Source: a phage
Length of the DNA: 64,000 bases
Strand: one strand, 5' to 3'
Sequence record: PX104379.1
In this document: one piece after another, positions 12,533-14,989 of the stretch
Position numbering within the stretch: position 1 is the first letter of the stretch
How the letters are laid out: each line of letters opens with the position of its first letter
Notes under the pieces: generated by a model
What the model saw: only the letters and a program-made list of their open reading frames with translations
Databases searched by the model: none
What the model was told of the DNA's origin: nothing
Translations under genes and position numbers: made by a program

Positions 12533-13393
12533 TTATACCGCCATCTTTCCTTTAATTGACGGATGAGATACATAGTTGTTAAGAACAAAATTATGCGGCT
12601 TTGCGAATTGACTCAACCAAAATACCTGCGATTCTGTGTCCCATTCATCAAATTCATCTGGAAATTTTAATTGTAATTCGCATAAATCCATAGGTTCACG
12701 ACGCAAAATTTCTTTACATTGTTCTACGTGATTCATATAGATATGAGTATTACCACCAGAAAATATCAAATCTCCCGGAATAAGATTACACATCTTAGCT
12801 ACAATATGAACTAACGTAGCATATGATGCAATATTAAATGGAAGACCGAGGAAAACATCTACCGAACGTTGATACCACTGCAAATCTAAATAGCCATTAC
12901 GCACATTAAACTGATAGAACATATGACAAGGCGGTAATGCCATATATTTAAGTTCAGCTGGATTCCACGCAGAAACAATTTGACGCCTATCATTTGGCAT
13001 TTTTTTAATACGATCAACAACTTCTATAATTTGGTCTACACCGCCAAAATCGCGCCACTGTTTTCCATAAATTGGACCAAGTTCACCACTATGGTATCCT
13101 AAATCTTTTGCCTGATTTTCGTAATTTTCATCCCAAACTGTTTTGCCTTGGATTAACGAATCGTGTTGAATTAATCGTAAATCATTGACATTTGTGCTTC
13201 CCGATAAAAACCATATTAGCTCAGCAATGCATGCATTCCAGGCGAGCTTCTTAGTTGTTACTGCAGGAAAACCTTTGGTTAAATCCCATCGTAATTTAGT
13301 ACCGAACAAAGCAATTGTTCCTGTGCCCGTTCGGTCATCGGTTTCATAGCCATTTTCAAAAATGTCTTTAATTAAATCTTGGTATTGTTTCAT
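12533..13393 (-). CDS. td: thymidylate synthase, 286 aa, uninterrupted
   Basis: 286 aa contiguous ORF recognised as thymidylate synthase. Confidence 0.9.
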   Translation of the reverse strand: MKQYQDLIKDIFENGYETDDRTGTGTIALFGTKLRWDLTKGFPAVTTKKLAWNACIAELIWFLSGSTNVNDLRLIQHDSLIQGKTVWDENYENQAKDLGYHSGELGPIYGKQWRDFGGVDQIIEVVDRIKKMPNDRRQIVSAWNPAELKYMALPPCHMFYQFNVRNGYLDLQWYQRSVDVFLGLPFNIASYATLVHIVAKMCNLIPGDLIFSGGNTHIYMNHVEQCKEILRREPMDLCELQLKFPDEFDEWDTESQVFWLSQFAKPHNFVLNNYVSHPSIKGKMAV

Positions 13394-13438
13394 TTAGTAC
13401 CTTATATAAATTATAATACATTTTATGAAGCTAAATAA

Positions 13439-13798
13439 TCAATACGGTTTAGCATCAAATTTTCTCTCAATTTCAGGTGTGAAATATAATTCTTTACCGC
13501 GTTTGGAAAAGCGACCAATAATATGATAATTATTCTCATCAAACGTGATATTACCAATATCCATAGCTTTCAACCAAATATCGATATTTCTATCCAGCTT
13601 TATGTCAAAATTCCAATACGGAGAACTATTACCGAAAATACTACAAGCGGATTCGGTGAAACAGCTACTATAAATCTTGTCTTTAGGAACTACTAATTGA
13701 TAGACACCTTTAATAAACTGAGGACCTTGCCATTTTGGCTGTTTCGCGTCTTTTTCTAATAGAATAGGGTAATAATTAAAATTCATATTTTCCGCCAT
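13439..13798 (-). CDS. hypothetical protein, 119 aa, between frd and td
   Basis: ORF track; co-oriented; no recognisable motif. Confidence 0.6.
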   Translation of the reverse strand: MAENMNFNYYPILLEKDAKQPKWQGPQFIKGVYQLVVPKDKIYSSCFTESACSIFGNSSPYWNFDIKLDRNIDIWLKAMDIGNITFDENNYHIIGRFSKRGKELYFTPEIERKFDAKPY

Positions 13799-13806
13799 GC
13801 GTTATT

Positions 13807-14629
<823 letters not shown>

Positions 14630-14645
<16 letters not shown>

Positions 14646-14989
14646 TGAAAGGGGCCATAAGCAAATCCGCTATCTTTAATCATTTTAACTAAAGTTACCA
14701 TTCCTCTGTTAACTGCTTGTGCGATTTCATTAAAAACTTCATCACTATCACCATAAAGATCGCTAAAAAGTTCTAACACGTTCTTCTGAACTTTTAATTT
14801 ACAACCAACAAATTCGCCTACAGTAAATTCGTTTCCGCCAACTCCAGCGTAAAACGTAATTACACCAGTTAATGGTCTTTCACTAGAACATAGGTCGTGT
14901 GATAAATTAATATAAGCCGTCCCGGGCGCAGTTTTAAGTTGGCAACGAATACTTACTCGAGCAATTCCAGCTACACGAATGTCAGACAT
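14630..14989 (-). CDS. hypothetical protein, 119 aa
   Basis: ORF track. Confidence 0.55.

Follow-up and report, generated by a model that had tools for sequence, protein, structure and literature searches.

Is a gene that one phage carries and T4 lacks an insertion, or does its absence reflect a loss on the T4 side? The question is raised by phage sequence record PX104379.1, of which a stretch of 64,000 nucleotides (nt), here called the window, was analysed. Between frd, the gene for dihydrofolate reductase (Frd or DHFR), and td, the gene for thymidylate synthase (Td), it contains a co-oriented open reading frame (ORF) of 119 amino acids (aa) at 13439..13798 on the minus strand, designated X below. 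An earlier note on this DNA described frd and td of T4 as contiguous, with overlapping stop and start, and took X for an inserted accessory gene, such as a degenerate or novel free-standing mobile-element ORF. The T4 reference bears out the contiguity: frd spans 145109..145690 and td, which has an intron with I-TevI, starts at 145112, with a 4-bp overlap and nothing between the two. As regards X itself, comparison with other phages points in the opposite direction. X is quite probably an ancestral neighbor of frd that belongs to a family restricted to T4-like phages, was kept here and deleted in T4; it may encode a small binding protein.

Aligned to the window, the T4 junction corresponds to the window sequence minus one copy of a 9-bp direct repeat, TAAATGAAA, and all that lies between the two copies, 417 bp altogether. 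The 50 + 50 nt around the T4 junction are 100% identical in several X-bearing phages, and the Frd proteins of the window and T4 share 97.4% aa identity. A profile search for X (hmmsearch --max) covered every six-frame ORF of the complete T4 genome down to a length of 30 aa and yielded a best E value of 0.89; by this measure the X family is wholly lost from T4. X is therefore dispensable in laboratory hosts. The 9-mer TAAATGAAA occurs 8 times in the window, where about 4 occurrences are expected, for which reason it is better read as a generic stop/start junction motif, and its role here as probable microhomology for a deletion, than as a target-site duplication. In the ancestral state X would lie directly downstream of frd, and the window phage would simply have retained it. 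T4 would have lost it through a deletion of this kind between the two TAAATGAAA copies, each of which reads as a stop codon followed by a start codon, and the deletion would have fused the stop of frd, TGA, with the start of td, ATG, giving rise to the ATGA overlap of T4. The textbook T4 frd/td overlap would then be a lineage-specific deletion scar, T4-like phages would not have it as their ground state, and an ORF that is extra relative to T4 should not be equated with an inserted one.

The alignment of the frd-td interval with T4 and its relatives, which the earlier note had proposed as a check, finds the ORF missing from T4 and present in nine genera. Tequatrovirus, Mosigvirus, Jiaodavirus, Mosugukvirus, Moonvirus, Winklervirus, Kanagawavirus, Marfavirus and Gualtarvirus all have a homologue as the next gene downstream of frd, and so do four metagenomic contigs. 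The contexts opened were those of Jiaodavirus KP17, Mosugukvirus PM2, Moonvirus CF1, Winklervirus Kc304, Mosigvirus AlbertHofmann and SF, Kanagawavirus ZX14, Marfavirus Potts1, Gualtarvirus PSTRCR_127 and the four contigs; in every one the homologue adjoins the DHFR gene downstream, usually overlapping its end. X keeps this position across the nine genera at 28-46% identity. Between-genus identity is 32-41% for X, 43-54% for Frd and 69-76% for Td; X thus diverges roughly in step with Frd, as it should if a rapidly evolving resident gene was inherited vertically. Up to three other small ORFs may sit between X and td, which ties X to frd rather than to td. In most other genera a tandem paralogue, X2, distinguished by an insertion of about 20 aa (PTIxxYKRxPxxY), overlaps and follows X, and the PM2 paralogue also matches PHROG 1928. 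Only a single X copy is present in Tequatrovirus, Mosigvirus, Jiaodavirus and Gualtarvirus, and X is likewise single-copy within the window. The products of X and X2 may form a heterodimer in some phages and X a homodimer in others.

A remote-homology search on the ORF protein, also proposed earlier, succeeded in placing X in a family, but not in one of known function. Residues 8-115 match positions 2-125 of the 126 in the phrog_1928 profile (E 9.5e-36); X is by this match a full-length member of PHROG 1928, a family of T4-like phages without assigned function. The protein is 100% identical to one of phage Ozark, and its nucleotide sequence recurs at 80-99% identity in 363 phage records, T2, T6, RB3, RB14, RB18, AR1 and PP01 among them, while tblastn with X finds 590 records, 227 of these below 60% identity. 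The RB14 RefSeq entry (YP_002854567) names the product 'RB32ORF229c hypothetical protein' and bears the note 'flanked by 9 bp repeat'. X and PHROG 1928 / RB32ORF229c (RB14, Ozark, AR1 ar1_242, phiD1 g240, T2, T6, RB3) are the same gene at the same position with the same 9-bp flanking repeat, the sole difference being an extra upstream in-frame ATG in the window, which gives a longest ORF of 119 instead of 115 aa. The databases thus already list X as a conserved hypothetical protein, one of the many conserved T-even genes that have no assigned function, and nothing points to a new kind of system. A literature search on the frd-td interval, on RB32ORF229c and on genes that T4 lacks turned up nothing relevant.

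The substitution pattern of X is that of a gene in use. Relative to the Mosigvirus orthologues of AlbertHofmann and SF, the ratio of non-synonymous to synonymous substitution (dN/dS) is 0.04-0.05 (dN 0.033, dS 0.66-0.79), and RB3 and AugustSocin, at a dS of 0.1-0.2, differ from the window by no non-synonymous change at all. In the same comparisons dN/dS is about 0.18 for frd and about 0.07 for td, values by which X is under stronger constraint than the enzymes next door. Across an alignment of 60 family members W23, G95, K99 and G101 are invariant and L13, G31, Y33, F97 and F106 nearly so, and AlphaFold2 run on this alignment returns a confident model (predicted local distance difference test, pLDDT, 90.0; predicted template modeling score, pTM, 0.83). 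Judged from sequence conservation, X is a genuine protein-coding gene under purifying selection.

Functional annotation of X is absent everywhere, and the interval has no annotation in a T2 partial record of 2003, both of which would fit an unexpressed frame that is open by chance in an AT-rich spacer. This reading is effectively refuted by the dN/dS values and the confident model, by the conservation of the start codon and ribosome-binding site, and by a family that keeps invariant motifs even between members at 20-30% identity. A more specific alternative holds that X is a mobile cassette, homing-endonuclease-like or otherwise selfish, inserted with a 9-bp target duplication, T4 being the ancestral empty site. 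X is indeed present or absent with exact boundaries among close relatives, is flanked on both sides by 9-bp direct repeats, is labelled 'putative homing endonuclease' in BASEL phage records, and forms a patch of 80-98% nt identity to Mosigvirus SF where flanking frd and td reach 50-68% and 70-83%. Its location between conserved genes, variable presence and sharp boundaries also recall the free-standing homing endonuclease genes of T-even phages (seg, with GIY-YIG; mob, with HNH). It lacks, however, a nuclease motif and conserved catalytic residues, and the intact-looking Seg and Mob proteins of T4 are about twice its size. GIY-YIG, HNH, LAGLIDADG, PD-(D/E)xK, EDxHD, transposase and integrase signals were found in none of the 60 family members (E<=1), nor did the window protein match a nuclease, transposase or integrase family in Pfam at E<=10; an NCBIfam search with X gave zero matches, and the 60-member alignment holds no conserved Asp, Glu, His, Cys or Ser column. 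Homing endonuclease genes also differ from X in lacking its conserved position: X is polymorphic within Tequatrovirus, yet across nine genera it stays in place, overlapping the frd end, with a divergence that tracks Frd, and a homing endonuclease was rejected on this distribution as well. The 9-bp 'repeat' is the generic motif described above, its right copy being the td start in every allele, and in AlbertHofmann the patch of similarity spans frd too, as in ordinary homologous-recombination mosaicism. The BASEL label seems to derive from comparative presence/absence, to which the methods of the BASEL paper point, and not from a nuclease motif. A mobile cassette is accordingly disfavored and very unlikely. 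The earlier suggestion of a mobile-element ORF is contradicted neither by T4, which has no homologue of X, nor by the coding evidence, which favors translation of the ORF; it fails instead because X occupies an ancestral position and shows neither a nuclease signal nor a conserved catalytic column. What survives is the accessory character of X, which is dispensable, absent from T4 and polymorphic at its junction among close relatives; that it was inserted does not, for it appears to be ancestral and lost in T4.

What the retained gene does is approached mainly through what its product resembles. Pfam gives no match to window X at E<=10, in agreement with the remark that it has 'no recognisable motif', and only scattered single matches to the 60 family members. 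Three diverse members had no match at E<=1 in PADLOC, which holds defence but not phage counter-defence proteins, so that this null result is compatible with an anti-defence role. Among 1.84 billion cluster representatives, a profile search returned 51 matches, of which the genuine ones are all stand-alone proteins of 95-148 aa, with no domain fusions or annotated relatives; long matches (He_PIG, SprB) are repeat proteins and were set aside as spurious. Foldseek matches in BFVD at E<=0.001 are all unnamed or 'Uncharacterized protein' entries of viral origin. The sole PDB sequence-profile match, to the transthyretin / 5-hydroxyisourate hydrolase family (E 0.028), covers the N-terminal 60 residues; neither a full-length match nor the transthyretin beta-sandwich fold was found, and membership in that family was rejected. 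Since conserved catalytic residues are missing and the conserved positions include aromatic and basic ones, a small binding protein is suggested: tentatively, the product is single-domain and mostly beta with one helix, non-catalytic, and acts by binding. W23, Y33, R96, F97, K99 and F106 may form the binding patch.

One candidate for the partner of X is Frd itself: X might work together with Frd, or with the deoxynucleoside triphosphate (dNTP)-synthesis complex, for example as an adaptor, a regulator, or a folate- or nucleotide-binding subunit. X follows frd in every context examined, even where other small ORFs separate it from td, and in other genera the two overlap at stop and start. Such a partnership nevertheless seems unlikely. 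Phages with Frd proteins of only 60% identity share X at 94-100% identity; conversely, T4 and the phages with a different, 68-aa ORF at the junction have 97-98% identical Frd without X. In addition, no nucleotide- or folate-binding motif was detected with Pfam in the window protein or the 60 family members. Near-identical X beside 60%-identical Frd, together with a T4 Frd that works without X, makes an obligate Frd partner less likely than some other conserved target, and the target is tentatively placed among conserved macromolecules, a host or phage protein or a nucleic acid, and not specifically Frd. A small protein of oligonucleotide/oligosaccharide-binding (OB)-fold-like type that binds single-stranded nucleic acid is a further proposal, and an improbable one; the known domains considered for comparison are the OB-fold ssDNA-binding domains of SSB, PriB, RPA and Teb1. 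Given the strong constraint on X and its constant place beside frd, a knock-out of X or a pull-down with it would be a reasonable choice in T2 or T6.

Two in-frame ATGs could open X, and conservation separates them. The first (13798) is specific to the window: the equivalent codon is GTG in AugustSocin, T4_ev151, Lutter and RB3, lies out of frame in Lutter, and is a non-start codon in AlbertHofmann. The second (13786) and the GGCGG motif before it are kept in all inspected Tequatrovirus and Mosigvirus homologues, and public annotations begin at its equivalent (348 nt). On these grounds the product is most likely the 115 aa from ATG 13786. The genes frd, X and td are all on the minus strand, with 8 nt between the frd stop and X and 45 nt between X and td. 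X would be translated from an early/middle polycistronic frd-td mRNA by means of its own conserved GGCGG ribosome-binding site, and the overlap of its start with the frd end in other genera suggests translational coupling. The phage Lutter record annotates a promoter at the place equivalent to the promoter-like site of the window (Table 1). The longest ORF of frd in the window runs from ATG 14415 (13807-14415, 202 aa), while the T4-equivalent start is ATG 14388 (193 aa, MIKLVFAYS...); public records of RB3, RB14 and Paracelsus give longer frd annotations of 609-615 nt.

Table 1. Features of the frd-td interval and of compared loci. Positions are those of the window except where a locus label precedes them.
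Feature	Position	Strand	Remarks
X (flagged ORF; PHROG 1928 / RB32ORF229c family)	13439..13798	minus	longest ORF, 119 aa from ATG 13798
X conserved coding sequence, most likely extent	13439..13786	minus	115 aa (348 nt)
frd (dihydrofolate reductase)	13807..14388	minus	193 aa, 582 nt as T4 frd; TGA stop 13807..13809
td (thymidylate synthase)	12533..13393	minus	uninterrupted 286 aa; without group I intron, without I-TevI
GGCGG Shine-Dalgarno-like motif	13792..13796	minus	5 nt upstream of X ATG 13786
Left copy, 9-bp direct repeat TAAATGAAA	13805..13813	minus	covers last frd codons and stop
Right copy, 9-bp direct repeat TAAATGAAA	13388..13396	minus	includes td start codon
X-td spacer	13394..13438	minus	45 nt, not in T4; AAGG precedes td ATG
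Promoter-like site TTGATT-18-TATTAT	13442..13413	minus	putative; weak consensus match, 9/12
X-X2 tandem arrangement, loci listed	L005:2808-3155, L006:2787-3134, L007:2814-3188, L014:2817-3176		
X-X2 tandem arrangement, further loci listed	L022:1643-1996, L010:4332-4673, L011:4344-4688		
68-aa ORF (phrog_9550)	L021:2804-3010		Yersinia phage fPS-90 g234c
68-aa ORF (phrog_9550)	L020:2805-3006		phage Paracelsus, unannotated

The junction exists in more than two forms. Typing of a systematic sample (60 of the 512 records matching the junction flanks) found X in 40 and the empty T4 type in 4, namely T4 twice, vB_EcoM_112 and Salmonella phage SG1; a further 13 match on the frd side only and 3 on the td side only (two partial records and one divergent genome). 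The two frd-side-only records that were opened, fPS-90 and Paracelsus, contain at the frd-td junction the unrelated 68-aa ORF (phrog_9550), whose start overlaps the frd stop in an ATGA and whose stop overlaps the td start in a TAATG. This ORF is present at >=90% identity in about 135 Tequatrovirus records, and distant homologues (43% identity) occur in the unrelated Phapecoctavirus. Marfavirus Potts1 has the order frd-X-X2-68aa-td, its 68-aa ORF being 79% identical. The frd-td interval is, on the evidence of these alleles, a small variable cluster subject to differential loss, with T4 as its fully emptied form. The td gene is intronless in the window and contains a group I intron with I-TevI in T4, RB3, T4_ev151, Lutter, Paracelsus and fPS-90. 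Whether the intron is present does not depend on the junction allele, and its linkage to X was rejected, RB3 and T4_ev151 having X as well as the intron with I-TevI. In the comparison of window positions 13439-13800 with Mosigvirus SF (L013), X has a dS of 0.66-0.79, much lower than the value of about 2 for td, and the sequences suggest that the X segment was exchanged fairly recently between Tequatrovirus and Mosigvirus.

Several public labels at this locus are unsupported and are flagged here. Doubtful ones occur in records MZ501052, MZ501047, MN580668, OR125554, OM386666, MW749000, MN013081, PV390659 and NC_054944. X is variously called 'putative homing endonuclease', 'putative glucose-1-phosphate adenylyltransferase' or 'putative dihydrofolate reductase', and 'flagellar biosynthesis protein' is a doubtful name given to the 68-aa ORF. 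The Potts1 gp175 entry reads 'putative ssDNA-binding protein', yet at 47% identity to Frd of the window (E 3e-62) this protein is a DHFR homologue.

On the other side of frd, between it and frd.1, the window has two small co-oriented minus-strand ORFs, 14388-14645 (phrog_3183) and 14630-14989 (phrog_3566), both from families without assigned function, and relatives have one or two of them. The corresponding gap in T4 is only 71 nt, which indicates that T4 is reduced on that side of frd too. X shares much with the ORFs of the T4 gene 32-nrdA region (frd.1, frd.2, frd.3, nrdA.1 and nrdA.2), being likewise small, co-oriented, tightly packed or overlapping, without known function, dispensable and variably present in T4-like phages; it differs from them in being unrelated in sequence and more constant in position, always right after frd.
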